Source: Candidatus Krumholzibacteriota bacterium
GTDB taxonomy: Bacteria > Krumholzibacteriota > Krumholzibacteriia > JAJRXK01
Direction: 5' to 3'
NCBI GenBank assembly: GCA_024276305.1
Contig: JAJRXK010000090.1
Coordinates: 42,794-106,793, forward strand
DNA length: 64,000 nucleotides
The first letter of the stretch is position 1. Each line of letters starts with the position of its first letter. Position numbers and translations under genes: made by a program. The notes under the pieces are model-generated. The model searched no databases and had not been told where the DNA came from. It saw only the letters and a list, made by a program, of their open reading frames with translations. Below, piece by piece: positions 2,983 to 38,271 of the stretch.

Positions 2983-2991
2983 GATTCGGGT

Positions 2992-3068
2992 GGGCGATTA
3001 GCTCAGCTGGCTAGAGCGCTCGCCTCACACGCGAGAGGTCACTGGTTCAAGTCCAGTATCGCCCACCA
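2992..3068 (+). tRNA. tRNA-Val (anticodon CAC), CCA encoded
   Basis: Acceptor GGGCGAT/ATCGCCC, D stem GCTC/GAGC, anticodon stem CTCGC/GCGAG with loop CTCACAC, T arm ACTGG-TTCAAGT-CCAGT, followed by ACCA. Confidence 0.85.
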
Positions 3069-22657: not shown

Positions 22658-22687
22658 TCCTCTCCCGGGGGGCGTGCTCGCGCGCCC

Positions 22688-23104
22688 TCAGTCCGGAGAG
22701 GCATCCCCTGAAGATTCCGAGAAAGTCTGGGGAGTTCCGGGCGGGAAGATCCGATCCCGCAGGGCTTCCAGGCTGTCGTGGATTGCGGCCAGGACGGCGG
22801 CGCCCCTCGGCGTGTCTTCGGCCAGTCGATCGAGGAGTGCTTCTCTCTGCGCTTCGTCGTAGAGTGAGGGCAGAGCGGCAAGGAGAGAATCCGCAAGCTG
22901 CGGATCCCGGGTGCGTTCCACTCGGATTCGAGCCAGTTCGACCGTCTCGTTCACGAGGCGTTGTTCTGCGGTGTCGAGCTTCACGGTCCGTTCGCGAGGA
23001 GATTCGCAGGCCACGAGGGCCAGGAGGGCCAGGAGGGTCCAGGCAACGAGGAAGGGGTCGCGGGCGGTTCCTTTCGGTGGGCAGGGATGGACATAGCGGA
23101 ACAT
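22688..23104 (-). CDS. Hypothetical small lipoprotein, about 138 aa
   Basis: Minus-strand ORF with N-terminal signal MFRYVHPCPPKGTARDPFLVAWTLLALLALVAC (lipobox LVAC). Helical, balanced composition with GC3-biased codons. No plausible plus-strand ORF fills the 445-nt rseP-bamA gap. The ATG chosen is the internal Met of track ORF 22688..23269. Confidence 0.45.
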   Translation of the reverse strand: MFRYVHPCPPKGTARDPFLVAWTLLALLALVACESPRERTVKLDTAEQRLVNETVELARIRVERTRDPQLADSLLAALPSLYDEAQREALLDRLAEDTPRGAAVLAAIHDSLEALRDRIFPPGTPQTFSESSGDASPD

Positions 23105-25205
23105 GCAGCACCAACTCGGCAGACACGTGGCAATGGCGAACACCTCGGAGCTTAAGCCCGTCCCGAGATCGTGTCGAGGGGCCGCTCGACGCGGCGCTCG
23201 GCGGAAGAGCTGGAGACTGCTCGGGTTCCTGACGATCCTGCTGACCGCCGGTCCCTTTGCCACCGCCAATGCCGACGAAGAACTCGATTGGGGCTTCGAT
23301 CAACGGGCATTGGACCGGATCGAATTCGAGGGCAATGAGGCTTTCTCGGACCCTCAACTGCGGAAGTTCTTTCTCGTGGACCACGCTCCCTGGTACGACA
23401 TCTTCGGTCGGGATCGCTACCGGACGGACCAGCTGCGTCAGGGCGTCGAAACCCTGCGAAACTTCTATCGCAGCCAGGGATTCCACCGCGCCGAAGTGAG
23501 TCTCGATCACATCGACGAGAGAGATGTTGGCGGCGATGTGGTCGTGGTTCGAGTGGTGGAAGGTCCTCAGACTCGGGTCGAGAGCGTCGACTTCGTCCAC
23601 CCGGATCCGCTCACCGCCGAGGAACTCGGCGCCCGGGTGAAGATTCACCCCGGGGGGCCGGCGCCCGCCGGTCGGGCCGGATTGGGAGGGGACCTCTACC
23701 GCATTCTCGACGCCTATCTCGTCCGGGGGCATCTCGGCGCGAGGGTGCAGGACGAGATCACCTTGGGGGATTCCACGGCCACGATCGTCTACACCATTCG
23801 TGCGGGGCCGGTCTATCAGGTGCGGCAGGTTCTCGTCGAGGGACAGAGAAAGACACGGCGGGAGCACATCGAGCGAGAGCTGAAGATCCACGCGGGGGAT
23901 CCCTTCGATGCCACGAAGATCGCGAGGACCGAAGCGGAGCTCCTGGACTTGGGATTGTTCCGCGACGTCAGCTTCCGGCCTGCGAACTTGGACAGCGCGG
24001 CGGCCCAAGCGGATCTGGTGGTGACGGTCGTCGAAAGAGAGACCGGATTCTACGAGCTCGGCCTGGGGACCGGTGACGAGGAGAGGGTGCGGCTCAGCGC
24101 AGCCTGGGGAGATCGGAATGTCCGAAGGAGTGGACGATCGATCACTGTGCGGGGACGGCTGGCTCTGGTGGGAGAGAATCGTTTCGACAATGTTCGCAGC
24201 GACGAATACAACCTCGACCATCGCGAGGAGATTCTCTACCGCAGTCCGCGTTTTCTGGGGACGCGCTTCGATCTCAATCTCAACACCTTCTTCCGCAAGG
24301 AGTCGAGACCTCGGTCGGGAGTGGAACTCCAACGCTGGGGATTGCTCGCGAACACCGTTCTGTACTCGCGTCCTTCGACCTCGATTGCTCTCGAAGGGGG
24401 CGTCGAGAACGTGCTTCGTCTGCCCCTGGGAAATGTCGCCAGCGCCAGCGACTTCTTTCCCAACCGTCGTGCGCAGACCCGGGCGGTGAGCCTGGTGATC
24501 ACCAGCGACAGCCGGGACGACTTCTTCGACCCCCGCAAGGGCAGCGAGCGACAGTTGCTGTTGCAGCTGGCAGGGGGGCCGTGGTTCGGTGGCGACAACA
24601 CCTTCAACAAGGCTCTCGCGAGCTGGACTCGCTTCGTCCCTCTTCCGAGGGGAGTGACCCTGGGTCTGCGGGCCCAGATGGGATGGGCGGAGGCCTGGTG
24701 GAGTTCGAAGAGCGACGGAGTTCCCTTCGAGGACCGTTTCTTCGCGGGGGGCAACCGCAGTGTGAGGGGATACCAGGAGAATTCCCTGGGCCCGAGAGCG
24801 ACGGTTCAGGATATCCAGGATGTGGCCGACGAGACCTTCTTGGCCAATCGTCCGACCGCGGGAGGGGGTGCGCTTCTGCTCAGCAATGCCGAACTGCGCT
24901 TCCCCGTCCCCCTCTTCGGACGATGGGGGTTTTCGGCGGCGATTTTTCTCGACGGGGGCAATGTCTGGGAGAATTGGGGAAAGGTGTCGCTCCGTCAGTT
25001 CAGCCTGTCGAAGTCGAGGGAAGAGACCACGGTGCGGGACTACCGTTTGAGCTACGGCCTCGGCGTGCTCTACAATACTCTGGTCGGGCCCTTGCGTCTC
25101 GACTACGGCGTGCCACTGCATCGGGCCTCCTTCGAGGATGTCGAGGGCAATCGCGAAGTCGACCCATCCCACCTCTGGCATTTCTCTCTGGGACACGCGT
25201 TCTAG
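23103..25205 (+). CDS. bamA: Outer membrane protein assembly factor BamA (Omp85)
   Basis: Signal peptide ...WRLLGFLTILLTAGPFATANA, POTRA-like repeats, barrel motifs FFAGGNRSVRGYQENSLGP and AIFLDGGNVWE, C-terminal ...HFSLGHAF. Start is uncertain (ATG 23103 or ATG 23133). Confidence 0.85.
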   Translation: MQHQLGRHVAMANTSELKPVPRSCRGAARRGARRKSWRLLGFLTILLTAGPFATANADEELDWGFDQRALDRIEFEGNEAFSDPQLRKFFLVDHAPWYDIFGRDRYRTDQLRQGVETLRNFYRSQGFHRAEVSLDHIDERDVGGDVVVVRVVEGPQTRVESVDFVHPDPLTAEELGARVKIHPGGPAPAGRAGLGGDLYRILDAYLVRGHLGARVQDEITLGDSTATIVYTIRAGPVYQVRQVLVEGQRKTRREHIERELKIHAGDPFDATKIARTEAELLDLGLFRDVSFRPANLDSAAAQADLVVTVVERETGFYELGLGTGDEERVRLSAAWGDRNVRRSGRSITVRGRLALVGENRFDNVRSDEYNLDHREEILYRSPRFLGTRFDLNLNTFFRKESRPRSGVELQRWGLLANTVLYSRPSTSIALEGGVENVLRLPLGNVASASDFFPNRRAQTRAVSLVITSDSRDDFFDPRKGSERQLLLQLAGGPWFGGDNTFNKALASWTRFVPLPRGVTLGLRAQMGWAEAWWSSKSDGVPFEDRFFAGGNRSVRGYQENSLGPRATVQDIQDVADETFLANRPTAGGGALLLSNAELRFPVPLFGRWGFSAAIFLDGGNVWENWGKVSLRQFSLSKSREETTVRDYRLSYGLGVLYNTLVGPLRLDYGVPLHRASFEDVEGNREVDPSHLWHFSLGHAF

Positions 25206-28200
25206 ATGGCATGGATCCGTCGCACCCGGGTGACTCTCCTCGTGGGCCTGCTTCTGGCGCTCGCGACTCTGGCGTGGCTGGTGGCGCATCCGTCCATCTA
25301 CTCCGGACAACTCGGTCGGATCATCACTGACAATCTGCTCCGCAAGTCCGGAGCAGCTCTGACCTTCGAGAGTCTCGACGGGAATCCTCTCCGAAATCTG
25401 ACCTTTCACACCGTCTCGTTGACCCGTTCGTCCGAGGATGGGAGCTTCGTCTATCTCACTGCGGACAGCCTGTCCATCGACTATGACCTGCGATCCTTCT
25501 TCACTCCCTCCCCTCATCTACGCTCCTTGGTTCTGGGCCCGGCCCAACTCCTGGTGCGTCGGCCCGCCGGAGACGATCCGGTACGCGAGGCGTCGGGTGT
25601 CCGCCTCTTCGATGCTTCGGTCCAAGTGGACTATGCCCGTCTCGATCACCTCGAGGTCTCGGTGACCGAATCTTCCGGCGATCAGCTCGACGGCTGGGAG
25701 GACATCCAGTGGGTGGGGTCCGTGCGGACGGGGCTGGATCACAGCGTCCAGATCCACACCGCTCGTCTGGCGGGACGATGGGGAAGAAGGGATCTCACCC
25801 TGCACCGCGCCAGTTTCGACGCGGTGATCCGCGGGCGTGAGGTGCAGGTGAAGACGGCGGCGGTGCGGCTCGACAGCACGCTGGTCGACTTCGATCTGGA
25901 CCTCACCCGGTCGGTGGGCGGGGGCGTGGACCGTTTCGTCCTCGAGGCAAGGGCGGAGGCTTTCTCCCTCAACGAGATCCTCCGGCTGTTGGGGAAGGAT
26001 CCCGGTCCGCGTCTGAGCCTGCAGGGGAAGGCGCGGCTCGACTATTCGAATCGGGTCCTGCGCCTCGGAGGAGCGGTGGAAGGATGGTTGGGAAGCTATC
26101 CCCTCTCGGCGAGGTCCTTCGAGGCCTCGGTGGATTCCACCGGGCTGCACCTCGCCAGGGCGGAGGGGACCTTCCTCTCCGCGGTGGGGGAGGTCCGCGG
26201 GGACCTGGACCTGCAATCGGGACTTCTGAGTCTGGAGGGGGGCTTCTCGGGGGCGGATCTCTCCGATCCCTGGGTCCCGACGGGCCGCCGTTGGCCCGCC
26301 TGTCGCCTCGGTGGCCGGGTGAAGATGGAGCTCAATGCCCGTCCTCCTCTGAGGCTGGACCTCGAGTTGTCCCGGCTTCGCGGTGACATCGTGGGGTTGC
26401 CCGTGGACTCCGCCCGCACCCGACTCCGTTTCCGGGAGGGAGAGGGTCTGGAGATCCTCTCCGGCCGCGCTCGGATTCTGGGCACCGGCTTCGCGATCAC
26501 CGGCTCCGTGGATGCCCTCGACCGCGCCGAAATGGCCATCACCCTCGAGGGATCGGATTCGAAGCCCTGGCAGGATCGCTTCGACTTGCCTCTTCGGGCC
26601 GAGGACTACACCGCGGTGGCTCGCATTTCGGGGGTCGTCGATTCCCTTGCCCTGAGGGTGGGTGGGGTTGCGGCACGTTTGAACGGTCCCTCGGTCCGAA
26701 GCGAGGACAATGCCTTCGTGGTCGACTTGCCGCGGGTCGCCGATCTCAGCCGGGCCCGAGGGCAGTTGCGGGCGGGGCGATCCCGGATCCGGGGCTTCGA
26801 CGGTGGAGAAGTTCGGATCGATTTCGAGAGAGAGGGTGATCGGCTGCGGGTCGAGCCCATGCAGCTCTCCCTGTCGGACTCCGTCCTGCGATGGACGGGA
26901 GCGGTGGATTGGTCGCGGGGCACGCCCACGGTAGAGCTCGACTCCCTCGAATTCAGGACTTCCGCTCAGCACTGGTGGTTGGAGGAGGCATCTCGGGTCG
27001 ATCTCTTTGCCGATGGATTGCGCACCGAGGGTCTTCGGTTGCGCAGCGAGGCGGGCCGGCTGCAGATGGTGGGAAGCGCCCGGATAGATGCGAATCTCAG
27101 CCTCCGTCTCGGCGTCGAAGATGGCGACCTGGCTTCTCTCCACCGCCTGGGACTCCTCACCACCGCCGCTTCGGGCCATTTCGACGCGGATCTGGAATTC
27201 GGGGGGAGCCTGGACCGGCTCCTGGCTCGGGTCCGCGTCGAGGTGGCGGACGCGGAGGTCGGAGGTCGGTCCCTGGGACAGGGTCGCTTCGAGGCCCGCG
27301 TCGAGGGACGAGAGGTGTTTCTGGACCGGGTATCGGTGCGAGGCGGATTGGGGGGACTGGAGGTCGCGGGAAGAGTGACGACCCCGGCGGACGATTGGCC
27401 TCGGACCCTGGTGAACACTCCGCAGGCCTTGGGCGACCTCTGGAAACAGTCCGTGCTGGACCTCAGCGTGGTGACCGACACCCTGGCCACGGCTCCACTC
27501 CTCGACCCCGCGGCGGCGCGGCGGCGATTCGGCCTGGTCTCCTCGGACCTTCAGCTGCGGGGGACTCCGCTGCACCCTCGCCTGGTCGGCGACTTGGACA
27601 TCCGGAGGATCGAGACCTCCGCCCTGGTGGTGCCTCGTCTGCGCGCGCGCATCGAGAGCGACGAGCGGGGAGTTCATGTGGGACAGGGCAGCCTGGGAGT
27701 GGAGAAGCCCTGGCTGGAGGTGGCGGGCTACTTGCCCCTCGACCTCTCGCTGGCGGGCGCGCCGCACTGGAATGCCGCCGACGGCCTGCAGTTGCGGATC
27801 TGGTCGCCGTCGGAGGTCGACTTGGCTCCCCTGATGGATTTCTGGCCTCTGGCGAGAGCCGTCCGTGGTCGCGGCGACTTCGAATTCGTCGCGGTGGGCG
27901 ATCCCAGCGCTCCGCAGCTCTCGGGCACCATCGAATTGCACGATGTGGAGCTGGGTCTGCGGGGTTGGTCGGAGAGCCTGCGCGAGGGTCAGCTGGAAGC
28001 CCATTTCGAAGGCAATCGACTGGTGATCGATCGCCTCGAAGCCCGGGAGGGCGCAAAGGGGAGAGTGCAGGCCCACGGTGAAGTGATTTTTCGGGGGTTG
28101 TTGCCCGATGATGTCTGGGCCGATTTCCGCCTCCACCGGGTGCTCCTGGCCAGCGTCCCCTATTTGCGAGCGGTGGGGAGCAGTGACGGCCTGCGTCTGC

Positions 28201-29096
28201 GTCTCGCACGTCCGAGCCCCGACGCACCTCGAGCTCCTCACCTCACGGGGACGGTGCAGGTGGACAAAGCCATCTACACCGGCGAATTCGCTTCTGGAGG
28301 CGGGGCGGAGTTCTTCGGACCGAATCTGACGCCGCAGTGGACCGCAGATCTGGCCATCCACGCCCGTGAGCAGGTGCGAATCAGCAACCAGAGCGCCGAG
28401 TTGCGGGTGCTCGGAGATGTGGACCTCATTCGCGACACCGCGGGTTTGCGATTCCGGGGAACGGCCGAAATCCCGCGGGGCCAGGTGCCTCTCTTCAACA
28501 ATGATTTCAACATTCTCTCCGGAACCCTCGATTTCAGCCGTCGTCCGGTCGAACCCGAAGTCGACATCACCGCCGAAACCGAGGTTCCGATTTACGATCC
28601 GGGGGAAGGGGGAGGTCGCCAGCTCGAGCGGATCACCATCCATCTCACGGGAACCTTCGCTCAGCCCACGGTGACCTTCACCAGCGAGAATGGCCTGGAC
28701 GAGAACAGCATTCTGCGCTTGCTCGCCGGTTTTGGAGGGCCCAGCGAATCCACCACCGTTTCCTCGGGGGTCTCCGATGTGGGACTGCGCGCGGGATTGA
28801 ACTTTCTCGAGCGGGCTCTGGCGCAGAGAGTGCGAGGGGTGGACACCATCGACATCGAGACCGAAGAAGTCGGAGTGTCCCAAATGCAGTCCACGCGCAT
28901 CGCGGTGGGGAAATACCTGTCGGAGAGCCTCTACCTTCGGTTGAGTCAGGGACTGTCGATCACCGAGCGGGACCTCTTCCTCGAATACCAGATTTCTCGC
29001 CGGCTCCTGTTCACGAGTGAATTGAGGCGCAGACTCCGGGAGAATGGGGCCGAGAACCAATTCAATGTGGACATGAAGTTCCGGGTGAAGTACTGA
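25206..29096 (+). CDS. tamB: TamB / AsmA-like translocation and assembly module protein (DUF490 C-terminus)
   Basis: 1,296 aa. N-terminal TM anchor LLVGLLLALATLAWLV, long beta-rich repetitive body, and DUF490-like C-terminus ...ERDLFLEYQISRRLLFTSEL...FNVDMKFRVKY. ATG directly abuts the bamA stop (TAGATG). Confidence 0.8.
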   Translation: MAWIRRTRVTLLVGLLLALATLAWLVAHPSIYSGQLGRIITDNLLRKSGAALTFESLDGNPLRNLTFHTVSLTRSSEDGSFVYLTADSLSIDYDLRSFFTPSPHLRSLVLGPAQLLVRRPAGDDPVREASGVRLFDASVQVDYARLDHLEVSVTESSGDQLDGWEDIQWVGSVRTGLDHSVQIHTARLAGRWGRRDLTLHRASFDAVIRGREVQVKTAAVRLDSTLVDFDLDLTRSVGGGVDRFVLEARAEAFSLNEILRLLGKDPGPRLSLQGKARLDYSNRVLRLGGAVEGWLGSYPLSARSFEASVDSTGLHLARAEGTFLSAVGEVRGDLDLQSGLLSLEGGFSGADLSDPWVPTGRRWPACRLGGRVKMELNARPPLRLDLELSRLRGDIVGLPVDSARTRLRFREGEGLEILSGRARILGTGFAITGSVDALDRAEMAITLEGSDSKPWQDRFDLPLRAEDYTAVARISGVVDSLALRVGGVAARLNGPSVRSEDNAFVVDLPRVADLSRARGQLRAGRSRIRGFDGGEVRIDFEREGDRLRVEPMQLSLSDSVLRWTGAVDWSRGTPTVELDSLEFRTSAQHWWLEEASRVDLFADGLRTEGLRLRSEAGRLQMVGSARIDANLSLRLGVEDGDLASLHRLGLLTTAASGHFDADLEFGGSLDRLLARVRVEVADAEVGGRSLGQGRFEARVEGREVFLDRVSVRGGLGGLEVAGRVTTPADDWPRTLVNTPQALGDLWKQSVLDLSVVTDTLATAPLLDPAAARRRFGLVSSDLQLRGTPLHPRLVGDLDIRRIETSALVVPRLRARIESDERGVHVGQGSLGVEKPWLEVAGYLPLDLSLAGAPHWNAADGLQLRIWSPSEVDLAPLMDFWPLARAVRGRGDFEFVAVGDPSAPQLSGTIELHDVELGLRGWSESLREGQLEAHFEGNRLVIDRLEAREGAKGRVQAHGEVIFRGLLPDDVWADFRLHRVLLASVPYLRAVGSSDGLRLRLARPSPDAPRAPHLTGTVQVDKAIYTGEFASGGGAEFFGPNLTPQWTADLAIHAREQVRISNQSAELRVLGDVDLIRDTAGLRFRGTAEIPRGQVPLFNNDFNILSGTLDFSRRPVEPEVDITAETEVPIYDPGEGGGRQLERITIHLTGTFAQPTVTFTSENGLDENSILRLLAGFGGPSESTTVSSGVSDVGLRAGLNFLERALAQRVRGVDTIDIETEEVGVSQMQSTRIAVGKYLSESLYLRLSQGLSITERDLFLEYQISRRLLFTSELRRRLRENGAENQFNVDMKFRVKY

Positions 29097-29262
29097 CCCT
29101 CCCCGATGCGGAGGGGTGGAGAGCGACGCGGCATGTGAACAAGAGACCGGAGATTTGACCGGCCCCGGCCGAGTCCAGTATCCTTGTTGCAGATACGGAC
29201 GCTTCCCATCCTCGCCGCTTTCGCGCCCGGTTGCCTGCATCGCCCCCGAGACAGGACTCGTG

Positions 29263-32200
29263 ATGCTCTCGATCCTTTCCGTGCGTTTGCGCCCTGCCGC
29301 TGTGATTGGCGCTCTCTTCGTGCTGGTGTCGATCATGGGCTCGGTCGGCTCCGCCACCGCGCAGTTCTTCGGACGCAACAAGGTCCAGTACGAGAATTTC
29401 GATTGGAAGATTCTCAACACTCCCCACTTCGAGATCTTCTTCTATCCCCAGGAAGAGCAACTCGCGGCAAGGGCGGGAGTGATCGCCGAGGATGCCTATG
29501 CGCGGTTGAGCGGGATTTTCGACCACGATCTGAGCAAGCGGATCCCCTTCGTGCTCTACGCTTCGCCCAACGACTTTCAGCAGACCAACATCAGTGATGG
29601 GCTGATCGGCGAGGGGACCGGCGGGTTCTCCGAGCCCATGCGCAATCGAATGGTACTTCCCTATCCGGGTGACAACGCTGGATTCGTCCACGTGATCAAT
29701 CATGAACTCGTCCATGTCTTCATGTTCGACATCGTTTTCGGGAGCACCCAGTCCGGAGGTGCCCGGGACCGATGGTTCCAGGTTCCGCTGTGGTTCGCGG
29801 AGGGGATGGCCGAATGGTTCAGCAGCGGTTGGGACGATCAGGCCGACATGTGGATGCGCGATGCCACGATCTACGACTGGGTGGTACCCCTGCACCGCAT
29901 CTACGGGGGGTTCCAAGTCTACAAGGAAGGTCAAGCGGCACTCCACTATGTGGCCCAGACCTACGGCGAGCCCAAAGTCGTCGAGGTGTTCAAGGCCCTC
30001 GGACGGACTCGGGACGCGGATCGCGCCGTGGAGCAGACCATCGGTCTGAATACCGAAGAGCTCTCCGAAGCCTGGATGAAGTCACTGAAGCAGGGCTATT
30101 GGCCTCTCTATGGGAACAAGCAGGAGCCCGAAGATCTGGGTCGTCGTCTCACCGACCACTGGAAAGAGGGAGCCTACTTCTTCCAGCAGCCCGCGTTGTC
30201 GCCCGATGGACGCTACATTGCGATGTTCAGCGACTACGACGGATTGGTGAATCTCTACCTGATGGACGCGATCGAGGGAAGAGTGCTCCGCAAGTTGGTG
30301 ACCGGCTATCGGAGCAATCAATTCCTGACTTTTCACAGCTTCGAGAGTTCGATCAGCTTCTCTCCGGACAGCGAGGCGGTGGCGTTCATCGCGAAGAGTG
30401 GGCGAGACGAGCACCTGTTCGTGATCGATGTCGAGTCGGGGAAGGTGCTCCGGGACATCGGGCTGCAGATGGACATCGCGCGAAGCCCGGCCTGGTCTCC
30501 GCAGGATGGGCAGGTGGTCCTGAGTGGAACGCGGAGAGGACAGACCGACCTCTACCTCGTCGACCTCGATCTCGGCGAAGTGAGAGCTCTCACCGATGAC
30601 ACCATCGACGAGCATTCCCCCGCCTGGTATCCCGATGGACGTCGGATTCTCTACAGCGCTCATCCCGCGACCACCGAGGACTTGTCCTTCATTCGCGACG
30701 AGGACGGCACCGTACGCATCGAAGGAGATCCCCTGCGCAAACCGACGCTGATCGAGGCGGATTCCGGATTCGATCTCTATCGTCTGGCGCTGTCCACCGG
30801 AGAAACGGAGATCGCGGTCTCGACTTCGGGAGACGACACCGACCCCTTCGTGGTGAACGACAGCACCATCGTCTTCATTTCGAATACCACCGGAGTTTCG
30901 AATCTGTGCAGCTTCGACGAGAGTTCGGAGCAGGTCCGTCGCCTTTCCGATGTGCTGGGAGGGGTGTTCCAGCCCAGTATGAGCCGCGAGACCGACCGCT
31001 TGGCCTTCACCGTGTTCAACCACGCGGGCTTCGACATCTTTCTGCGCGAGAATTTCACCGAGTTGCTCTCCGCGGAGGGTTTTCCGCTGGAAGCAGAGAC
31101 CGAATTGGTCCAGGCCCCACCGAGGCCCGACCCGGTGGAGGGGTCCGGCGAGGGGACGGCCGGTGAGGCCGGCGCGGTCACTACGGAGCTCGAACCCCTC
31201 GGGAAGCGGGTGGTGGCGGAGGTTGCGCGGGCGGATACCCATCGATCGACCGGAGGGGGCGTGGTGACCGTGGCCACGATGCCGGCCGCCCCCGACTCGG
31301 CTGCCGCCGATTCAGTCCTTGCCCCCAGCCCGGAGGAGTCCGAGGCTCCGGATATGGAAGAGTTGGTCGCCGCGGCGGTGGCGGTCGCGGACAGCGGCGG
31401 AGCCGGAGATCCTTCGATCGGAACCGTCGAACCCTACCGACTGCGCTTCTCGCTCGACCCCTACAGCGCAACCGGCGGGGGTGGGGTCTTCTACGCTCAG
31501 GGCCTGGGTTTCGGCGCGGCTCAGCGGATTTCGCTCAGCGACCTCCTCGGCAACCACCGAATGAGCTTCTTGATCAACTTCTACGGTTCGATCAAGAACA
31601 GTGATCTGGCGGCCAGCTATACCTACCTGAAGCGGCGCGTGAACGTCTCGGGGGGAGTGTTTCACTACCGGAACATCCTCAACAGCAACTTCACCAGCAT
31701 CGGCGAGGTCTTCGACAACAATCGCCTGTTCACCGAACGCAACTACGGGTTGTTCGGCCTCGCGAGCTATCCCTTCTCGCAGTTCAATCGACTCGATTTC
31801 GAGCTTCAGGCCTTCGTGAGCGACAAGAGCTTCTTCGAATACAATCGCTTCACCGGCTTCTACGAGCAGGTGGGGGAACGGCAGAGAGATACGCTGGTCC
31901 AGCCCTCCTTGACCTATGTCCACGATTCCACTTTCTACGGGCAGTACGGTCCAGTGACCGGCAGCCGGTGGCAAGTTTCCTTCTCGCCCGCCATCCCGGT
32001 CGGCGGCGAGCAGGGTGTCGATCGCACTACGAGCTATGTGGACTACCGGCGCTACTTCCGGCTCTGGGACCGCAATGGCTTGGCGCTTCGGTTCATCGGG
32101 GCGCAGAGCGTGGGCGGTCAACCCCGCAAGTTCGTCATCGGAGGAGCCCAGACCCTTCGGGGTTGGGATATCTTCGACTTCGAGCGAGTGAATGCCGACG

Positions 32201-32553
32201 GTAGTCCACGCCACCCCAATCTGGTGGGGAGCAAGATGTTCATGTTGAATCTGGAATACCGTTTTCCCTTCGTGGACGCGCTCATTCTGGGATGGCCGGG
32301 GCGTTTCGGGATTGGAGGGATTTCGGGCGCGGTTTTCATGGACACCGGGGCAGCCTACGACGGGGCCTTCCGATTCTTCAGTCGGACCGAGAGCGGGACG
32401 CGGCGACTCCAGGACTTGAATGCGGATTTCGGCTTTGGTATAAGGGCGAATGTCGGTTGGTTGCCACTTCGCTTCGATTGGGCGTGGAAGACCGATCTCG
32501 CCGAGACCAGCAACGATATTCGCTATTCCTTTTCGATCGGCCCGTCCTTCTAG
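29263..32553 (+). CDS. Multidomain outer-membrane protein: signal peptide, HExxH gluzincin-like metallopeptidase-like domain, TolB-like PD40 beta-propeller, long low-complexity linker, Omp85-family (bacterial surface antigen) beta-barrel
   Basis: Signal MLSILSVRLRPAAVIGALFVLVSIMGSVGSATAQ. HINHELVHVFMFD followed by LWFAEGMAEWF (HExxH with a downstream Glu). PD40 repeats (SPDGRYIAMFSDYDGLVNLYLMD, SPDSEAVAFIAKSGRDEHLFVID, SPAWSPQDGQVVLSG...TDLYLVDL, SPAWYPDGRRILYSA). Gly/Ala/Pro/Glu-rich linker. C-terminal barrel with GGAQTLRGWDIFDF, GAVFMDTGAAYD, terminal ...RYSFSIGPSF. The track start (29116) is trimmed to the Met that begins the signal peptide. Confidence 0.8.
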   Translation: MLSILSVRLRPAAVIGALFVLVSIMGSVGSATAQFFGRNKVQYENFDWKILNTPHFEIFFYPQEEQLAARAGVIAEDAYARLSGIFDHDLSKRIPFVLYASPNDFQQTNISDGLIGEGTGGFSEPMRNRMVLPYPGDNAGFVHVINHELVHVFMFDIVFGSTQSGGARDRWFQVPLWFAEGMAEWFSSGWDDQADMWMRDATIYDWVVPLHRIYGGFQVYKEGQAALHYVAQTYGEPKVVEVFKALGRTRDADRAVEQTIGLNTEELSEAWMKSLKQGYWPLYGNKQEPEDLGRRLTDHWKEGAYFFQQPALSPDGRYIAMFSDYDGLVNLYLMDAIEGRVLRKLVTGYRSNQFLTFHSFESSISFSPDSEAVAFIAKSGRDEHLFVIDVESGKVLRDIGLQMDIARSPAWSPQDGQVVLSGTRRGQTDLYLVDLDLGEVRALTDDTIDEHSPAWYPDGRRILYSAHPATTEDLSFIRDEDGTVRIEGDPLRKPTLIEADSGFDLYRLALSTGETEIAVSTSGDDTDPFVVNDSTIVFISNTTGVSNLCSFDESSEQVRRLSDVLGGVFQPSMSRETDRLAFTVFNHAGFDIFLRENFTELLSAEGFPLEAETELVQAPPRPDPVEGSGEGTAGEAGAVTTELEPLGKRVVAEVARADTHRSTGGGVVTVATMPAAPDSAAADSVLAPSPEESEAPDMEELVAAAVAVADSGGAGDPSIGTVEPYRLRFSLDPYSATGGGGVFYAQGLGFGAAQRISLSDLLGNHRMSFLINFYGSIKNSDLAASYTYLKRRVNVSGGVFHYRNILNSNFTSIGEVFDNNRLFTERNYGLFGLASYPFSQFNRLDFELQAFVSDKSFFEYNRFTGFYEQVGERQRDTLVQPSLTYVHDSTFYGQYGPVTGSRWQVSFSPAIPVGGEQGVDRTTSYVDYRRYFRLWDRNGLALRFIGAQSVGGQPRKFVIGGAQTLRGWDIFDFERVNADGSPRHPNLVGSKMFMLNLEYRFPFVDALILGWPGRFGIGGISGAVFMDTGAAYDGAFRFFSRTESGTRRLQDLNADFGFGIRANVGWLPLRFDWAWKTDLAETSNDIRYSFSIGPSF

Positions 32554-32606: not shown

Positions 32607-34943
32607 ATGCTCGAGGGCCTCAATTCACCACAGCGCCAGGCCGTCTCCCATCCCGGCGGACCGCTCCTGGTGATCGCCGGCGCGGGCAGCGGCAAGACCC
32701 GCGTTCTCACCACCAGAATCGCGTGGTTGATTCGGGAGTGCGGCGTCGCACCGGAAAGCATTCTCGCCTTCACCTTCACGAACAAGGCCGCTCGAGAGAT
32801 GCGGCAACGCGTCGATCAGATGGTACCCGAGGCCCAGGGGAGATGTTGGATCGGCACCTTCCACTCTACCGGGGTCCGAATTCTGCGCAGCGAGGGACAT
32901 CGTCTGGGCTACGATCGCTTCTTCACGATCTACGATGCCGACGATTCGCGGGCCCTGCTCAAGAAGATCGTGCAGGACCTCGAACTCGACACCAAACAGT
33001 ATTCGCCTCGCCAGCTCGGATCGGAGATCAGCGGGCACAAGAACCACTTTCGATCTCCCGAACAGGTCATGGCGACATCGATCACTCCTCGGGATCAGAA
33101 GGTGGCCGAGGTCTACGCCGAATACGGTCGCCGGCTGCGCGAGAATGGCGCGATGGACTTCGACGATCTCATCGCCAAGACGGTCGAACTCTTCGAGGAC
33201 CATCGAGAGGTGCAGGAGCGTTACAGCCAGCGTTTCGAGCACGTGCTCGTGGACGAGTTCCAGGATACCAATCCCTTGCAGCTGGTCATGGTGCGAGCGC
33301 TGAGCGCGCGCCACGGAAATCTGTGTGCGGTGGGCGATGACGATCAGTCGATCTACTCGTGGCGGGGCGCGACGGTGGAGAACATGCTGGGATTCGAGGA
33401 ATACTTTCCCGGATCCACCTTGGTTCGACTGGAACAGAATTACCGCTCCACCTCCCTCATTCTCGAAGCGGCGAATGCCGTCATCGCTCACAATCGTCGA
33501 CGCAAGGGCAAGACTCTCTGGAGTGACCGCTCGGGGGGGGCGCCCATCGAGCTGTGGTGGGCCGAAGACGAGCACGAAGAGGGACGCAAGATTCGGGATC
33601 GGATTGGACGACTCCTCGCCGAGACCGACGCGCGACGCAGGGACATCGTGGTTCTCTATCGCACCAACGCTCAGAGCCGTGCGGTCGAAGATGCCCTGCG
33701 GCGAGAATCGATTCCCTATCAGATCGTGGGAGGCACTCGCTTCTACGAGCGGCGCGAGGTCCGGGATCTGTTGGCCTACCTCAAGTGTGTACAGAATCCG
33801 GCCGACAGTGTCAGCTTCGCCCGGATTCTGAACGTTCCCAAGCGGGGCATCGGCAAGACCAGTGCTTCGCGCTTCTTCGAATTGGCGCAGCGGATGGGCA
33901 CGGTGTCGGATGCCCTCTCCGACCGGGGGCGTCTGCTGAGTTCCTGTGGCAAAGCGGCGGCCGGCCGATTGGCGGCCTTCGGACAGTTGCTTCAGTCCTT
34001 GCGGCGTCTGGCCGAGAACGCCGATGCCGCCGCGGTATTGCGGCAGGTGATCGAGGCGACGAAGTACGAGAACTACCTGCGGGAAGACGATCCCACGACC
34101 GCCGACGACCGCCTCGAGAATGTCTACGAGCTCGTGAATGCGGCCGAGGAGTTCTCGGTCGAGAGCGATGAGCCGGGGCTCGGTCCCTTTCTCGAGAGCG
34201 TGGCGCTCCTGGCCGAAGTGGACAAGATGAGTGACGAGACGGACCAGGTGACTCTGATGACCGTCCACAATGCCAAGGGTCTCGAGTTCCCCTACGTTTT
34301 CATCGCGGGCTGCGAGGAGGGACTGCTTCCCCACGCCTCGTCCCTCGAGGACGATGATCAGCTGGAGGAAGAGCGGCGCTTGTTCTACGTTGCCCTCACC
34401 CGGGCCGAGGAAGCGGTATTTCTGACCGCTTCTGCCATGCGCCGCCGCTTTGGTAGTAGTGAGCCGGCGGCGGCCAGTCGTTTCGTGGGCGAGATTCCCG
34501 AAGAGCTCGTGGCCGAGATGGGGGGGCTGGCTTTCGGATCGCGATTCCAAGCGCCTCGAAGTCTCGGAGAGCGTCGGTGGAATTCGATCTCTACCTCTGC
34601 CCCGGCCAAGAGGCCGCGGAGATCGCGGGATCAGGGGGTATCGGCGGACGCCCTCGCCGACGCTCAGGCTTTCCTCCGGAGCCGGGCGCGATCCAAGGCT
34701 CGGGCTCGAAAGGAAGTTGCGGACCACGGCTTCGAAGACCACGATCTGACTCAGGAGGAACTCTGCTATCGGGTGGGGGCCAGGGTGGAGCACGAGCTGC
34801 TGGGGGAGGGGGTGATCGAGGAGATCGAGGGCGTTGGAGATCTCTTGCGTCTCACCGTGAGTTTCGGTGAACGTGGGCGGAAGCGGATTCTTGCCCGCTA
34901 CGCTCGTCTGCGCCTCCTCGACACGGAAGCTGGAGCTCAGTAG
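32607..34943 (+). CDS. pcrA: ATP-dependent DNA helicase, UvrD/PcrA/Rep family
   Basis: Walker A AGAGSGKTRVLTTRIAWL and helicase motifs (FTNKAAREM, VLVDEFQDTN, VGDDDQSIYSWRGA, ...VHNAKGLEF). 778 aa. Assignment between pcrA and uvrD cannot be made from sequence alone. Confidence 0.88.
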   Translation: MLEGLNSPQRQAVSHPGGPLLVIAGAGSGKTRVLTTRIAWLIRECGVAPESILAFTFTNKAAREMRQRVDQMVPEAQGRCWIGTFHSTGVRILRSEGHRLGYDRFFTIYDADDSRALLKKIVQDLELDTKQYSPRQLGSEISGHKNHFRSPEQVMATSITPRDQKVAEVYAEYGRRLRENGAMDFDDLIAKTVELFEDHREVQERYSQRFEHVLVDEFQDTNPLQLVMVRALSARHGNLCAVGDDDQSIYSWRGATVENMLGFEEYFPGSTLVRLEQNYRSTSLILEAANAVIAHNRRRKGKTLWSDRSGGAPIELWWAEDEHEEGRKIRDRIGRLLAETDARRRDIVVLYRTNAQSRAVEDALRRESIPYQIVGGTRFYERREVRDLLAYLKCVQNPADSVSFARILNVPKRGIGKTSASRFFELAQRMGTVSDALSDRGRLLSSCGKAAAGRLAAFGQLLQSLRRLAENADAAAVLRQVIEATKYENYLREDDPTTADDRLENVYELVNAAEEFSVESDEPGLGPFLESVALLAEVDKMSDETDQVTLMTVHNAKGLEFPYVFIAGCEEGLLPHASSLEDDDQLEEERRLFYVALTRAEEAVFLTASAMRRRFGSSEPAAASRFVGEIPEELVAEMGGLAFGSRFQAPRSLGERRWNSISTSAPAKRPRRSRDQGVSADALADAQAFLRSRARSKARARKEVADHGFEDHDLTQEELCYRVGARVEHELLGEGVIEEIEGVGDLLRLTVSFGERGRKRILARYARLRLLDTEAGAQ

Positions 34944-34963
34944 CCTCAACCAGGAGCGAAGCC

Positions 34964-35539
34964 ATGGAAACGGTTCGACCCCCTTGCCGCCATCGATCCG
35001 GAGGACCCGAGGTGGTCGGTCGATGGTGCTGCGTGGTCGTCGTCGTGGTTTCGGTCCTGGCGATGGTGGGGCCGGCATGGCCCGCTACCTCTCGCCCAGG
35101 CTCGCCTCCCGAGGGCGGGCGCTTCCTGAGCCAGCAGGACAGCCTGGGTTACGACGACTATCGCGAACTCGATCACGACACCCAGCTCGAACGACGCGAG
35201 TCGGCGAAGCGCTGGGCCAAACGGGTTCGCGAGACCCGACGCCGCGCTGCGCAACAGGTGGAGAGCTCGGCTGCGGTTCGGATCTATCGCCAAGCCCTCG
35301 ACGAGGCGGCGACGGTGGTCGGACTCTGTCCCTATTTCCCCGAGGGTTGGCTCCTCTACGCCGACGTCCTCAACCACCTGGGATACTATGTCTCGGCCGA
35401 ACTCTGCCTCGACCACGCGGAGAGCACTCTGGCCTATGAACGCAACTCCAAGCATCGACGTCAGCTCGTGGGAGATCTGCACGGACAGCGTGCGGTGATC
35501 GCTTACAACCGTGGCGATTGGGCGACGAGTGCGGCGTAA
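34964..35539 (+). CDS. TPR-repeat protein, N-terminal segment (membrane-anchored); terminates at an in-frame TAA that interrupts a TPR motif
   Basis: N-terminal hydrophobic anchor CCVVVVVVSVLAMVGPAWPA and TPR-like helices. Same reading frame as ORF 35591..36577, which resumes 17 codons later. See findings. Confidence 0.55.
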   Translation: METVRPPCRHRSGGPEVVGRWCCVVVVVVSVLAMVGPAWPATSRPGSPPEGGRFLSQQDSLGYDDYRELDHDTQLERRESAKRWAKRVRETRRRAAQQVESSAAVRIYRQALDEAATVVGLCPYFPEGWLLYADVLNHLGYYVSAELCLDHAESTLAYERNSKHRRQLVGDLHGQRAVIAYNRGDWATSAA

Positions 35540-35590
35540 TCCGAGCAGGCGCAGGAGGCGCGGCCCAACGACTCGAAGTGGACGCTGCTC

Positions 35591-36577
35591 TTGGCCCGGT
35601 CGCTGAATGCTCTGGGCCGCTACGACGAGGCCCGCAAGATCCTCGATGAGATCGATCCGGACCGCCCGGCCAAGGCCACCGCGCTCAGCGTGTTGGGTCT
35701 GATCGAGATGTCCGCGGGAGACCTGGATGCGGCCCAGAAAGCCTTCGACGCGGCCGCGAGACGAGGTATGCGGAGTGCGGTGTTCCACAATGATCGGGGG
35801 CGTCTGGCCCTCCTCCGCGAGGACTACGATCGAGCGGAGGAAGAATTCGAGAAGGCCATCGCGATGGCTCCTTCCTTCATCGAGGCTCGCAGCAATCTGG
35901 CGGTGGCTCATCGGCGGGCGGGTCGGCTCGACGAGGCTCAGGAGGTGTTGGAATCGCTCATCGACAATCGGCCGAACTACGGTGCGGCCCATTTCAATCT
36001 GGCCGAGGTGTTGCGAGAGGAATTGACCGATCTCGATGCACCCGCACGCGAGGCGAAGGCCCGCATGGCTCTGAACCACTATTCCCGGGCATTGGAGCTG
36101 GGGTTCTCCCCCGAGCAGGTGATCGAACGCCGAGCGAGTCTCGCGGCGGCGGTGGACGATCTGGACCTCGCGGAGGAGGACTTTCTCAAGATGGCCGAGG
36201 ATCCGGAAATCAGCGGCGATGTGCTCCATCGTTTGGGTCGAGTGAAGCGGGATCAGGGACGGCCGGATATCGCGCAGAAGCTCTTCGAGATGGCGATCGA
36301 ACGCGGAGCCGACGGGGCCGTGCTCTACAGCGATTACGGCGGGATTCTGCTCGCGGACTCGGATTTCGAAGGAGCACGTCGGGCCTTCGAGGCAGCCCTC
36401 GAACGAAATCCCGACCTGTTGATCACCCGGGTGAATCTGAGCATCGCATGGATGGAGTTGGGAGACGACCTTCGGGCGGCCAAGGTTCTGCGGCCGGCAT
36501 TGCGGGTTGCTCCCGACCATCCGGTCGTACGCGCGCAGCGCATTCAGCTCGAGAAGTTGGGGCAGAGTTTTGACTGA
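35591..36577 (+). CDS. TPR-repeat protein, C-terminal segment (probably the same gene as 34964..35539)
   Basis: Multiple TPRs (ALGRYDEARKIL, AAHFNLAEVL, ...). The listed TTG start gives an atypical N-terminus. The frame is open back to the TAA at 35537-35539. Confidence 0.55.
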   Translation: MARSLNALGRYDEARKILDEIDPDRPAKATALSVLGLIEMSAGDLDAAQKAFDAAARRGMRSAVFHNDRGRLALLREDYDRAEEEFEKAIAMAPSFIEARSNLAVAHRRAGRLDEAQEVLESLIDNRPNYGAAHFNLAEVLREELTDLDAPAREAKARMALNHYSRALELGFSPEQVIERRASLAAAVDDLDLAEEDFLKMAEDPEISGDVLHRLGRVKRDQGRPDIAQKLFEMAIERGADGAVLYSDYGGILLADSDFEGARRAFEAALERNPDLLITRVNLSIAWMELGDDLRAAKVLRPALRVAPDHPVVRAQRIQLEKLGQSFD

Positions 36578-36890
36578 ATCCTCCGAGGCCCTTCTCCAAG
36601 AAGCCCGTCGCCTCTGCGCGCTGGCGGGCTTGCGCGGTGACCCCCAGGAACTCCGCCTCGCCATGGAAGAGACCGAGCGGGTCGAGGAGATCGGGGAGGT
36701 CCTGGAGCGGTGTCTTTCGGAGGGCGAGGACTGCGATGGGGATGAGGTGGAGGCCGACTGCGGGCCGATGCCCCTCGCGGACGACTCTCCCGGGGAGGGG
36801 GCTGCGGGCAATGATGACTGGGTCGAGACGCAGGCCCGAGCATCCCTGAATCCCCTCCGAGTTCCCACGGTCGAATTCCGAAGTGAGTGA
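36570..36890 (+). CDS. gatC: Aspartyl/glutamyl-tRNA(Asn/Gln) amidotransferase subunit C (probable)
   Basis: Small acidic helical protein immediately upstream of gatA and overlapping its GTG start, as expected for gatCAB. Start is uncertain (TTG 36570, or ATG 36507 overlapping the TPR gene). Similarity is weak; the call rests mainly on synteny. Confidence 0.5.
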   Translation: MTESSEALLQEARRLCALAGLRGDPQELRLAMEETERVEEIGEVLERCLSEGEDCDGDEVEADCGPMPLADDSPGEGAAGNDDWVETQARASLNPLRVPTVEFRSE

Positions 36891-38271
36891 GCTGAACTCG
36901 ATCTCGCTCTCCGAGCTCTGTCGTCTGCGCGACGAGGGGGTGGTGAGGGATGAGGAGATTCTCGATTCCTTCGAATCCCGATATCGCCAACACGAGCCGC
37001 GGCTCCACGCTTTCGTCCATCGCTACCGCAGTGGAAGTGCGGAGGGAGGAATCCTCCGGTCGATTCCCTATGCCACCAAGGCCAACCTCGCGGTCCGAGG
37101 ACAGCCGCAGGACTGCGCGAGTCGGTTGCTTCGGGGCTACCGTGCGCCCTACGACGCGACGGTGACCCGCCGGCTGCGAGAGGCGGGTGCGGTGGTGGTC
37201 GGTTCCACGAATATGGACGAGTTCGGGATGGGCAGCACCACCGAGTATTCCTGCTACGGTCCCACCCGGCATCCCTTGGATCCGGAGCGAAGCCCCGGCG
37301 GATCTTCGGGGGGCGCGGCGGCGGCGGTGGCCACGGGAATGGTCGCCTTTGCCCTGGGAACCGACACTGGGGGCTCAGTGCGCCAACCGGCCGCGCACTG
37401 TGGAGTGTTCGGGCTGCGACCGACCTGGGGAAGGATCTCTCGGTGGGGACTGACCGCCTTTGCGAGCAGTATGGACCAGGTGGGGATTCTGACCCGGAGG
37501 GCGGAGGACCTTCCCGTGGTCCTGGGCCTCCTGACGGGGCGGGATGCCTTCGATGCGACCACCCACCAAGTTCCGACCCGAGAGGTGGGAAGGGGGGATC
37601 TTCGGGGGCTGAGGGTCGCCTTCGATCCCGCCGGCTTGGGTTTCGCGGAGGCAGAAGTGGCGGTGGCTTTCGAGGGATTCGTCGCCGACCTTCGGAGCGC
37701 GGGAGCGGAGGTCCGAGAATTGAGCCTGCCGGCCAGCACCGCGGCCCTGGAGTGCTACCTGCTCCTGAGCTCGGTCGAGGCCGCGAGCAATCTGGCCCGC
37801 TTCGACGGGACGGTCTACGGTCGGCGCCGAGGCGGCGATCACTACGAGGAGATGGTTCGGAGGACTCGAAGCGCTGGATTCGGAGAGGAGGTGAAGCGTC
37901 GGATTCTGCGGGGCACGCTGGTCTTGGCGGCCGGAGAGTCGGGAGCGGAGCTCGGGCGAGCGCGGCGGTTGCGCGCGCGGATTCGCCGAGAACAGATCGA
38001 CGCCCTCCGCGGACACGATGCGCTCCTGATGCCCACCACTCCCGCCGGGCCTCCTCGGATCGGAGCGCCACGAGGAGAGTCGAAGCAGACCACCGATCCG
38101 GATCGTTTCACGGCACCGGCCAGTCTGGCGGGACTGCCAGCCCTCGCGGCGCCGGCGGGGCGGGCCAGGAACGGATTGCCGTGGTCGGTGCAGTGGGTGG
38201 GCGCGCCGGATGCCGACGAGACCCTGATCGCCATCGCCATGGCCTGCGAAGCCGAAGGGTTGGGAAGGTGA
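36883..38271 (+). CDS. gatA: Glutamyl-tRNA(Gln) amidotransferase subunit A (amidase signature family)
   Basis: Amidase signature GGSSGGAAAAVATGMVAFALGTDTGGSVRQPAAHCGVFGLRPTWGRISRWG; 462 aa. Confidence 0.9.
   Translation: MSELNSISLSELCRLRDEGVVRDEEILDSFESRYRQHEPRLHAFVHRYRSGSAEGGILRSIPYATKANLAVRGQPQDCASRLLRGYRAPYDATVTRRLREAGAVVVGSTNMDEFGMGSTTEYSCYGPTRHPLDPERSPGGSSGGAAAAVATGMVAFALGTDTGGSVRQPAAHCGVFGLRPTWGRISRWGLTAFASSMDQVGILTRRAEDLPVVLGLLTGRDAFDATTHQVPTREVGRGDLRGLRVAFDPAGLGFAEAEVAVAFEGFVADLRSAGAEVRELSLPASTAALECYLLLSSVEAASNLARFDGTVYGRRRGGDHYEEMVRRTRSAGFGEEVKRRILRGTLVLAAGESGAELGRARRLRARIRREQIDALRGHDALLMPTTPAGPPRIGAPRGESKQTTDPDRFTAPASLAGLPALAAPAGRARNGLPWSVQWVGAPDADETLIAIAMACEAEGLGR

Follow-up and report, generated by a model that had tools for sequence, protein, structure and literature searches.

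What does an Omp85-type outer-membrane barrel do when a putative zinc peptidase and a β-propeller stand in the place of its POTRA domains, and when it is encoded directly behind bamA and tamB? This question is raised by a gene, here called gene X, in a 64,000-nucleotide (nt) stretch of the genome of a Candidatus Krumholzibacteriota bacterium (assembly GCA_024276305.1, contig JAJRXK010000090.1, positions 42,794 to 106,793 of the forward strand), which we refer to in its full length as the window and whose first letter is position 1. Omp85 proteins are the universal building machines of the outer membrane, and to our knowledge all characterized members insert or translocate proteins, PlpD being the one different use. 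The answer to which our analysis points, at a probability of about one half, is that X is an outer-membrane-anchored, periplasm-facing zinc metallopeptidase of the gluzincin type, which in this clade would act on envelope proteins in transit. We infer its topology, its catalysis and the class of its substrates from conserved motifs, predicted structure and gene order, as set out below.

Domain architecture of the protein

Gene X occupies a stop-free open reading frame (ORF) of 1,096 codons on the forward strand. A longer form of this ORF opens at a GTG at 29116; this candidate start was dropped in favor of the ATG at 29263, from which the protein begins with a signal-peptide-like segment, MLSILSVRLRPAAVIGALFVLVSIMGSVGSATA, followed by the mature N-terminus QFFGRNK. 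The ATG is the likely start because this layout, a signal-peptide-like N-terminus and then FGRNKVQ, is common to 120 homologues. The features of X are as follows, with positions in amino acids (aa) and with conservation, where not otherwise said, referring to an alignment of 46 sequences that are 39-75% identical to X:

29263..32553, + strand: gene X, WD40-like Omp85 protein of 1,096 aa (peptidase, propeller, linker, barrel)
29263..29361, + strand: predicted signal peptide, aa 1-33, cleavage site between A-T-A and Q (sequence reading; same layout in 120 homologues)
29362..30150, + strand: predicted gluzincin-fold metallopeptidase domain, aa 34-296
29368..29400, + strand: mature N-terminal peptide FGRNKVQYENF, aa 36-46, near-invariant
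29701..29715, + strand: HELVH, predicted zinc-binding/catalytic motif (H147, E148, H151), in 120 of 120 homologues and invariant in the alignment
29797..29817, + strand: AEGMAEW helix with E180 (likely third zinc ligand) and E184, both Glu invariant
30151..31074, + strand: six-bladed TolB/PD40-type β-propeller, aa 297-604 (AlphaFold2, NCBIfam, PDB profile search, Foldseek)
31075..31422, + strand: linker, A/E/G/V/P-rich and disordered, aa 605-720, lengthened in this lineage
31423..32550, + strand: Omp85-type barrel of about 16 strands, aa 721-1096 (Pfam, Foldseek, alignment with the window's own BamA)
32155..32166, + strand: loop-6 LRGW motif (equivalent of BamA VRGF/Y), R966 invariant
32335..32349, + strand: FMDTG (FxDxG), which pairs with loop 6 in barrels of the BamA type, D1027 and G1029 invariant
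32524..32550, + strand: C-terminal β-signal YSFSIGPSF, Phe-terminated, F1090 and F1096 invariant

An initial annotation, made by reading the letters without database searches, had described the product as a fusion of an HExxH metallopeptidase-like domain, a TolB-like propeller, a Gly/Ala/Pro/Glu-rich linker and an Omp85 barrel. The short motifs that it named were all located: HELVH at aa 147-151, AEGMAEW at aa 179-185, GGAQTLRGW (its GG..LRGW, with LRGW at aa 965-968), VFMDTGAAYD at aa 1024-1033 and YSFSIGPSF at the extreme C-terminus (aa 1088-1096). Its domain assignments proved correct, each being backed by profile and fold evidence. In the comparison with Pfam hidden Markov models, PD40 and full-length Omp85 were matched, and Peptidase_MA_2 reached 29.5 bits, a value under its gathering score of 32.4. 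The AlphaFold2 model, computed from the 46-sequence alignment (mean predicted local distance difference test, pLDDT, 81.9; predicted template modelling score 0.79), contains the expected C-terminal barrel of about 16 strands. We rejected the alternative of a mis-assembled or chimeric ORF, as the collinear architecture recurs in more than 1,800 homologues among the matches listed (E<=1e-5; nearly all of 1,000-1,130 aa) and a distant relative from Ignavibacteria aligns with X from end to end (30% identity, E=1e-162). No second copy of X was found within the 64-kb window.

In the 46-sequence alignment the peptidase domain is the best-conserved region of X and the linker the worst. The modelled N-terminal domain (aa 49-292) is mostly helical and is, as far as the model goes, a gluzincin fold: it shares the thermolysin-like catalytic fold and is resembled by structures of gluzincin aminopeptidases and collagenases. 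The fold comparison gave the following values for the peptidase domain:

M9 collagenase: 16.3
M30 lugdulysin: 16.3
ERAP1: 15.5
Aminopeptidase N: 14.8
Tricorn factor F3: 14.2
LTA4 hydrolase: 13.8
M61 peptidase: 11.7
Thermolysin: 10.4

At the level of sequence the Peptidase_MA_2 model (PF13485) matches aa 75-276 of X (E=7.8e-7) and is found at E<=1e-3 in 42 of the 46 relatives, with a best value of 3.7e-12. Further, an examination of individual residues showed that: 1) the HExxH motif is present in all of the 120 best homologues; 2) H143, H147, E148, H151, E180, E184 and Y220 are invariant in the alignment. The M1 and M9 peptidases hold their third zinc ligand in an xEGxA pattern, by analogy to which E180 is the likely third zinc ligand of X. 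On the same grounds H147, H151 and E180 would together bind the zinc, E148 would act as the general base and Y220 might stabilize the transition state. The strict conservation of this catalytic set, the universal HExxH and the top rank of the peptidase domain in conservation argue for X being an active metallopeptidase. A search with the peptidase domain recovered 3,887 representatives of 50%-identity clusters at E<=1e-3, and in the best 150 of these matches the domain lies at the N-terminus, mostly of proteins of ~920-1,130 aa. Given this nearly exclusive N-terminal placement in proteins of such a size, the domain appears to travel together with the propeller and the barrel, and the three are therefore likely to work as one unit.

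The propeller, for which the initial annotation had counted four or more blades, is confirmed as such, and the count in the AlphaFold2 model is six (24 strands over aa 307-596, pLDDT >90). Pfam PD40 matches it at E=8e-15 and was found in all 46 relatives when these were scanned singly. TolB is the best match by sequence and by fold for aa 300-600: the NCBIfam TolB model gives E=1e-26 (score 93.8, equivalog cut-off 343, over model positions 197-296 of 418 only), a profile search of the PDB E=6e-22, and Foldseek against the PDB E=1e-12. The Pfam matches of the propeller in X and its relatives also include DPPIV_N, Tricorn_N and Tricorn_2nd, the two Tricorn families being among the precomputed matches of the relatives. 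Such a TolB/Tricorn/DPP-IV-like propeller probably selects or holds a substrate or a partner.

The C-terminal part of X is covered by Pfam Omp85 (PF01103) at aa 750-1096 (E=1.3e-13, model positions 3-325 of 325), which was also matched in 43 of the 46 relatives scanned singly. In the model the barrel has about 16 strands over aa 741-1092, and a short conserved pre-barrel element lies at aa 721-745. Foldseek comparisons with the PDB retrieved TamA and BamA barrels (E ~1e-10 to 1e-11), among them the barrel-only TamA structure 8us4 (E=3e-11, target-normalised template modelling score, TM, 0.71). The NCBIfam model of the BamA barrel matches at E=3.5e-11, far under its equivalog cut-off, and that of TamL at E=1e-6. 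The BamA encoded in the window itself, which displays the barrel hallmarks VRGY, FLDGG and ...HFSLGHAF, aligns with X from loop 6 to the C-terminus at strand 16 (27% identity, E=4e-6). The residues that are invariant among the relatives are R966 of loop 6, D1027 and G1029 of the FxDxG motif, and F1090 and F1096 of the β-signal. POTRA domains are indeed replaced by the peptidase and the propeller, as had been claimed: PF07244 has no match in X (E=2.5e-22 in the neighboring BamA), and no such domain is present in the AlphaFold2 model. The barrel keeps the BamA-type motifs and is at least the anchor of the protein.

Two unstructured segments complete the architecture. In the peptide FGRNKVQYENF close behind the predicted cleavage site, N39 and K40 are invariant and G37 and Q42 at least 90% conserved in relatives down to 39% identity, and the segment has a low pLDDT and no predicted secondary structure in the AlphaFold2 model. 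It looks like a short linear motif, such as a partner-binding box or an active-site plug. The linker is as rich in Gly, Ala, Pro and Glu as first noted, these residues making up 54% of aa 605-720 against 28% of the whole of X, and it is disordered in the model at aa 627-712 (pLDDT <50). Its columns contain about 60% gaps in the relatives, and it is largely a lineage-specific insertion; its length is bimodal, 25 of the 46 relatives having 51-53 aa and the others 79-169 aa (133 aa in X), the long form being a low-complexity A/E/G/V/P-rich insertion. We considered linker length as a test of topology and abandoned it as uninformative, since the minimum of about 35 unstructured residues is compatible with either orientation of the N-terminal domains.

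Relationship to known families

By its domain architecture, matched against the published tables, X belongs to the WD40-like (TolB-like) Omp85 subfamily, one of the ten subfamilies of Heinz & Lithgow 2014 (Front Microbiol 5:370, PMC4104836), in which UniProt entries such as C1A6X2, I0AKC8 and D0MEQ5 are listed. Some of the entries appear to be from Ignavibacterium album, and the end-to-end alignment of X with an Ignavibacteria relative lends its membership indirect support. The main text of that study presents the subfamily as a BamA-BamB-like fusion, and in its Table S3 nearly all of the members listed have matches to a BamA/TamA barrel, to TolB and to a gluzincin "aminopeptidase", with tricorn factor F3, aminopeptidase N, ERAP1 and collagenase G as the gluzincin templates. 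On comparison with Tables S2 and S3, X fits in both its PD40/WD40-like propeller N-terminal to the barrel, with TolB as the best template, and its N-terminal gluzincin aminopeptidase/collagenase match. Unlike the present analysis, the main text is silent on the peptidase domain, on how well its catalytic residues are conserved and on a bamA-tamB context. Hence the statement of the initial annotation that it knew of no characterized protein with this architecture stands, but the architecture as such was not new, having been catalogued in 2014 (PMC4104836). A later study (Hanson et al. 2024, PMC11116518) likewise describes the WD40-like, metalloprotease and patatin-like Omp85 subfamilies as not well characterised.

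Relatives of X are encoded in 497 species-level genomes, the best 80 of which belong to Krumholzibacteriota (the closest, with 57-62% identity), Latescibacterota, Eisenbacteria, Fibrobacteraceae/Fibrobacter and Chitinivibrionia. At E<=1e-20 the Ignavibacteria branch numbers more than 4,000 proteins. In public databases these relatives go under the names "BamA/TamA family outer membrane protein", "PD40 domain-containing protein", "peptidase MA family metallohydrolase", "biopolymer transporter Tol" and "Protein TolB", such that the annotation of each follows its top-scoring domain.

Comparison with better-known proteins brings out what is shared and what is distinctive in X. 1) With BamA and TamA/TamL it shares the barrel of about 16 strands, the loop-6 RG(F/Y/W) motif, FxDxG, the C-terminal FxxxGxxF and an operon position with tamB, whereas those proteins carry POTRA domains and X has none, and its NCBIfam scores lie far under the respective cut-offs (42 versus 297; 27.5 versus 400). 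2) With TolB it shares the six-bladed PD40 propeller, but the N-terminal α/β domain of TolB and its tol-pal context are not found for X, whose context is bamA-tamB. 3) The fusions of outer-membrane proteins (OMP) or FhaC with TolB-like domains (PMC12204202, Mol Biol Evol 2025) join, as does X, a barrel in the outer membrane to a six-bladed TolB-like propeller in the periplasm, and, like the relatives of X, OMP-TolB-like proteins are often automatically annotated as TolB. That study reports these fusions to be widespread, proposes them as kin of the TolB ancestor and suggests that they may act in septal wall remodelling. They differ from X in having a Rossmann-like domain beside the propeller, where X has the gluzincin peptidase domain, and the barrel of X has BamA-type features as opposed to the FhaC type of the FhaC-TolB-like fusions. 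4) We rejected X as a component of the BAM (β-barrel assembly machinery) of Bacteroidota: a text search of the two cryo-electron microscopy papers of 2025 found no TolB, peptidase or TamB term, the sole propeller described there is the separate lipoprotein BamI, and Omp85 occurs only in a reference list.

Conserved gene neighborhood

Gene X is the next but one gene after bamA in a series of genes, from uppS through pcrA, that all lie on the same strand and of which the first four (uppS, cdsA, dxr and rseP) serve envelope biogenesis:

18339-19088, + strand: uppS
19075-19974, + strand: cdsA
20021-21205, + strand: dxr
21287-22657, + strand: rseP
23103..25205, + strand: bamA, 700 aa, POTRA repeats and Omp85 barrel (Omp85 E=1e-41, POTRA E=2.5e-22, TIGR03303 252 bits)
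25206..29096, + strand: tamB, 1,296 aa, directly upstream of X (TamB PF04357, E=6.5e-36)
29155..29184, + strand: TTGACC-N18-TATCCT, a weak match to a sigma-70-like promoter within the 166 nt that separate tamB from X (consensus match only)
32607..34943, + strand: pcrA/uvrD helicase, 53 nt downstream of X (TIGR01073 821 bits)

The tamB start codon begins with the base that follows the bamA stop (25205/25206), and the last 14 nt of uppS (19075-19088) are shared with cdsA; both arrangements suggest translational coupling within the block. No terminator-like site was found between genes of the block, including the gap between tamB and X. The candidate promoter that the initial annotation had placed at about 29153-29182 is present, two bases further on; it was the only such site in the 500-nt region scanned, where 0.1 were expected from shuffled sequences. 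Between rseP and bamA there is an unusually long gap of about 445 nt (22658-23102), and in related loci the rseP and bamA matches are similarly about 500 nt apart. It had been considered as a frameshifted N-terminus of bamA, which was discarded as the overlapping ORF 22618-23232 is Arg/Gly/Pro-rich and looks non-coding; no Rfam match lies in the gap.

We compared the proteins of the window with 80 related loci using tblastn, 60 of which have at least 4.2 kb of sequence upstream of their X homologue. In 49 of these 60, tamB ends 0-600 nt before X on the same strand, and in five more (L010, L063, L072, L074, L075) it slightly overlaps the estimated start of X; in L046, L073 and L080 bamA is followed by a gap of ~4 kb that would fit a divergent tamB. 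Across the related loci, a median of 83 nt separates tamB from X. Upstream bamA was found in 49 of 53 loci and downstream pcrA in 54 of 57, and the syntenic loci cover identities to X of 34-62% and several candidate phyla. None of the block genes was detected in L076, and in L041, L043 and L049 the bamA-tamB pair was apparently either gained by or lost from an otherwise conserved dxr-rseP-X-pcrA block. The order dxr-rseP-bamA-tamB-X-pcrA is conserved in genomes of the Krumholzibacteriota, Latescibacterota, Eisenbacteria and Fibrobacterota type, and is apparently a new point of this work. As the order is kept in most of the 60 loci, the link to bamA-tamB is stronger than could have been known from the window, where it was first remarked. 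Heinz et al. 2015 (PMC4494059), in whose paper the term "WD40" does not occur, have documented operons of bamA and tamB and the usual adjacency of tamB to the gene of its Omp85 partner.

The synteny does not extend to the whole family; this wider claim was rejected, as the arrangement is absent in the four Ignavibacteria loci. The link of X to bamA-tamB is strong, yet specific to one large clade. In three of the Ignavibacteria loci the homologue is monocistronic, between a ribosomal-protein cluster and rpsF-ssb-rplI, and a divergent block of two to three M16 peptidase genes and a gene for a MoxR-type AAA ATPase is present (L081 5844-9732, L082 7206-9806, L084 2907-5557). In the fourth (L083) it follows genes related to the type IX secretion system.

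Proposed function

We propose that X functions in the following steps: 1) it would be exported by the Sec pathway and its signal peptide cleaved, as its N-terminal sequence suggests; 2) BAM would insert the barrel into the outer membrane by means of the C-terminal β-signal, to judge from the motif; 3) the peptidase-propeller module would stay in the periplasm, flexibly tethered to the barrel, the propeller selecting or holding a substrate or partner that the HExxH...E site may then cleave, which is in keeping with the conserved residues and the fold; 4) in this clade the substrates would be unassembled or stalled outer-membrane proteins, or the cleavage might be a processing step. X is probably co-expressed with BamA and TamB in this clade, and, since it shares one same-strand block with their genes, envelope proteins in transit are the most likely substrates. 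From this we infer a role in envelope-protein quality control or processing.

In 16-strand Omp85 barrels both ends face the periplasm. This known orientation, together with the precedent of PlpD, whose patatin/enzyme domain was shown experimentally to be periplasmic and not secreted (PMC11116518), is the reason for placing the peptidase and propeller of X, by analogy, in the periplasm. PlpD, the type Vd protein of Pseudomonas aeruginosa, appears to be the best experimental precedent for such a topology: as in X, an Omp85 barrel follows an N-terminal hydrolase domain, although PlpD has one POTRA and a lipase, whereas X combines a metallopeptidase, a propeller and a long disordered tether without POTRA. 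In further support, PMC12204202 likewise places the TolB-like domain of its fusions in the periplasm. For the activity, X might be a functional analogue, on an Omp85 scaffold, of BepA, the BAM-associated zinc protease that has been connected with BamA and with the clearing of stalled outer-membrane proteins (PMC13067283). The two would be alike as periplasmic HExxH zinc proteases equipped with a module for protein interaction, whereas in family and fold class they are unrelated: BepA is a soluble M48 and TPR protein, and X a barrel-anchored M1/M9/M30-like gluzincin with a propeller and no M48 or TPR match in Pfam.

A bolder extension, which we regard as a long shot, would make X a third component of the BamA-TamB machine in Krumholzibacteriota, Latescibacterota, Eisenbacteria and Fibrobacterota: a quality-control barrel that engages stalled or misfolded β-barrel substrates, or the cargo of TamB, and cuts them with its tethered peptidase, with FGRNKVQ as a docking or autoinhibitory switch. 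If this were true, X would be the first case of an Omp85 protein that serves in proteolysis and not in insertion or translocation.

Several observations weigh against the proposal of a periplasmic protease for envelope proteins. The Peptidase_MA_2 score of X lies below the Pfam gathering threshold, and neither profile nor single-sequence searches of the PDB found a solved peptidase matching the domain by sequence. No functionally characterised member of the subfamily was found in the literature searched. As to the genomic context, the promoter-like site at 29155-29184 allows X to be transcribed independently; in L041, L043 and L049, which are of the Eisenbacteria/Effluviviaceae type, rseP is followed directly by X without detectable bamA or tamB between them; and in none of the four Ignavibacteria loci examined is bamA or tamB near the homologue, which stands alone and in three of the four adjoins divergent M16 peptidase genes and a MoxR gene, making the synteny clade-specific. 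Moreover, pcrA, a gene without an obvious envelope function, is conserved as a neighbor to an equal degree, such that a conserved neighborhood need not mean a shared function.

Alternative functions

The last of these observations is also part of the case for the explanation that survives best beside our proposal, though we consider it unlikely: X might be a nutritional periplasmic peptidase whose propeller gates oligopeptides, as in Tricorn, DPP-IV and acylaminoacyl-peptidase, with the barrel as an anchor only and the bamA-tamB neighborhood as a historical accident. The DPPIV_N and Tricorn matches of the propeller, the nearness of the peptidase fold to M1 aminopeptidases and tricorn factor F3, and the M16 peptidase genes that adjoin the homologue in Ignavibacteria would all suit such a function. 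However, it gives no reason for the retention of an Omp85 barrel whose BamA-type motifs are intact in place of a lipid anchor, and the tight same-strand adjacency to tamB holds at 34-40% identity across candidate phyla.

If instead TolB, the best match of the propeller, is taken as the guide to function, X might be a TolB-like tether or organiser, its propeller binding a Pal-like lipoprotein or a peptidoglycan-associated partner and so connecting the outer membrane with the cell wall, as a relic of, or alternative to, Tol-Pal, with the peptidase fold mainly binding or regulatory. The proposal that OMP-TolB-like fusions are relatives or ancestors of TolB, possibly in septal wall remodelling (PMC12204202), points in this direction, as does the resemblance, by position only, of the invariant unstructured N-terminal peptide to the TolA box of TolB. 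We find this improbable: the N-terminal α/β domain of TolB is absent, the NCBIfam TolB score of 93.8 against 343 comes from the propeller part only, no tol-pal genes are among those annotated around X in the window, and the invariant HExxH, Glu and Tyr residues and the top conservation of the peptidase point to catalysis.

More doubtful still is that X substitutes for TamA or TamL as the receiver of the TamB bridge, so that bamA-tamB-X would form a module for lipid or protein transport like that of TamA and TamB, with the peptidase and propeller as accessories. The POTRA domains of the partner serve TamB as its docking site, and these are missing from X. The immediate upstream position of tamB in most related loci, with very short gaps, the usual encoding of TamB beside its Omp85 partner (PMC4494059) and the weak similarity of the X barrel to TamL (E=1e-6) and TamA (TM 0.71) would be accounted for, but bamA itself abuts tamB, in agreement with the known BamA-TamB type of operon (PMC4494059), and the Borrelia TamB orthologue is reported to interact with BamA (PMC5582053). 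Also, the full X architecture occurs in the four Ignavibacteria loci without tamB nearby, and the invariant catalytic residues are left unexplained.

Least probable of all is a self-exported, type V-like surface protease, for which the barrel would translocate its own peptidase-propeller passenger, with the linker threading the pore, to digest external proteins for nutrition or remodel the surface: a topology of this kind was raised for metalloprotease-type Omp85 proteins by analogy to PlpD (PMC4104836), even the shortest linkers of the family, with some 35 or more unstructured residues, could span the barrel, among the structures nearest to the peptidase domain are endopeptidases that are secreted (M9 collagenases and M30 lugdulysin), and the Ignavibacteria relatives sit near M16 peptidase genes. 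Against this, PlpD, the original model for the idea, keeps its enzyme domain periplasmic (PMC11116518), and export would require a folded six-bladed propeller and a helical domain of 260 aa to pass in unfolded form with no source of energy. The lock of loop-6 RG(F/W) and FxDxG, which in BamA and TamA fills the lumen, is retained in the barrel, and X has no POTRA or TpsB-type features. Of the three roles that the initial annotation had envisaged, namely outer-membrane biogenesis, quality control and surface display, the last is the least likely.

Other features of the window

Upstream of the block, tRNA-Met(CAT) and tRNA-Val(CAC) lie in tandem at 2911-3068, and an RNase P RNA of the bacterial class A at 4808-5186 (297 bits) is followed by recJ (5218-6945) and relA/spoT (6942-9176). 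The RNase P RNA and the two tRNAs were the only matches at gathering score in an Rfam scan of the window. Further downstream, the ORF 38390-40123 (+ strand, 577 aa) has no Pfam match at E<=1e-4. Two long ORFs on the minus strand, 25518-29420 (1,300 aa, opposite tamB) and 34946-38071 (1,041 aa, opposite TPR and amidase genes, with no Pfam match), are probably artefacts of the 64% G+C content.

Conclusions

The WD40-like Omp85 subfamily is large and distributed over many phyla, and the hypothesis put forward here for X is that of a barrel-anchored periplasmic protease tied to outer-membrane biogenesis. To its published description the analysis of X adds an invariant active site, a count of six propeller blades, the BamA-like motifs of the barrel, the size of the family, the clade-restricted bamA-tamB-X-pcrA block and the invariant N-terminal peptide. 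In several phyla of the FCB group the gene is locked into the uppS-cdsA-dxr-rseP-bamA-tamB block, and the syntenic loci include some from Fibrobacter, a culturable genus. If the proposed function is correct, it would widen the known use of the Omp85 scaffold and would represent a solution to quality control in the envelope unlike those of BepA and DegP.

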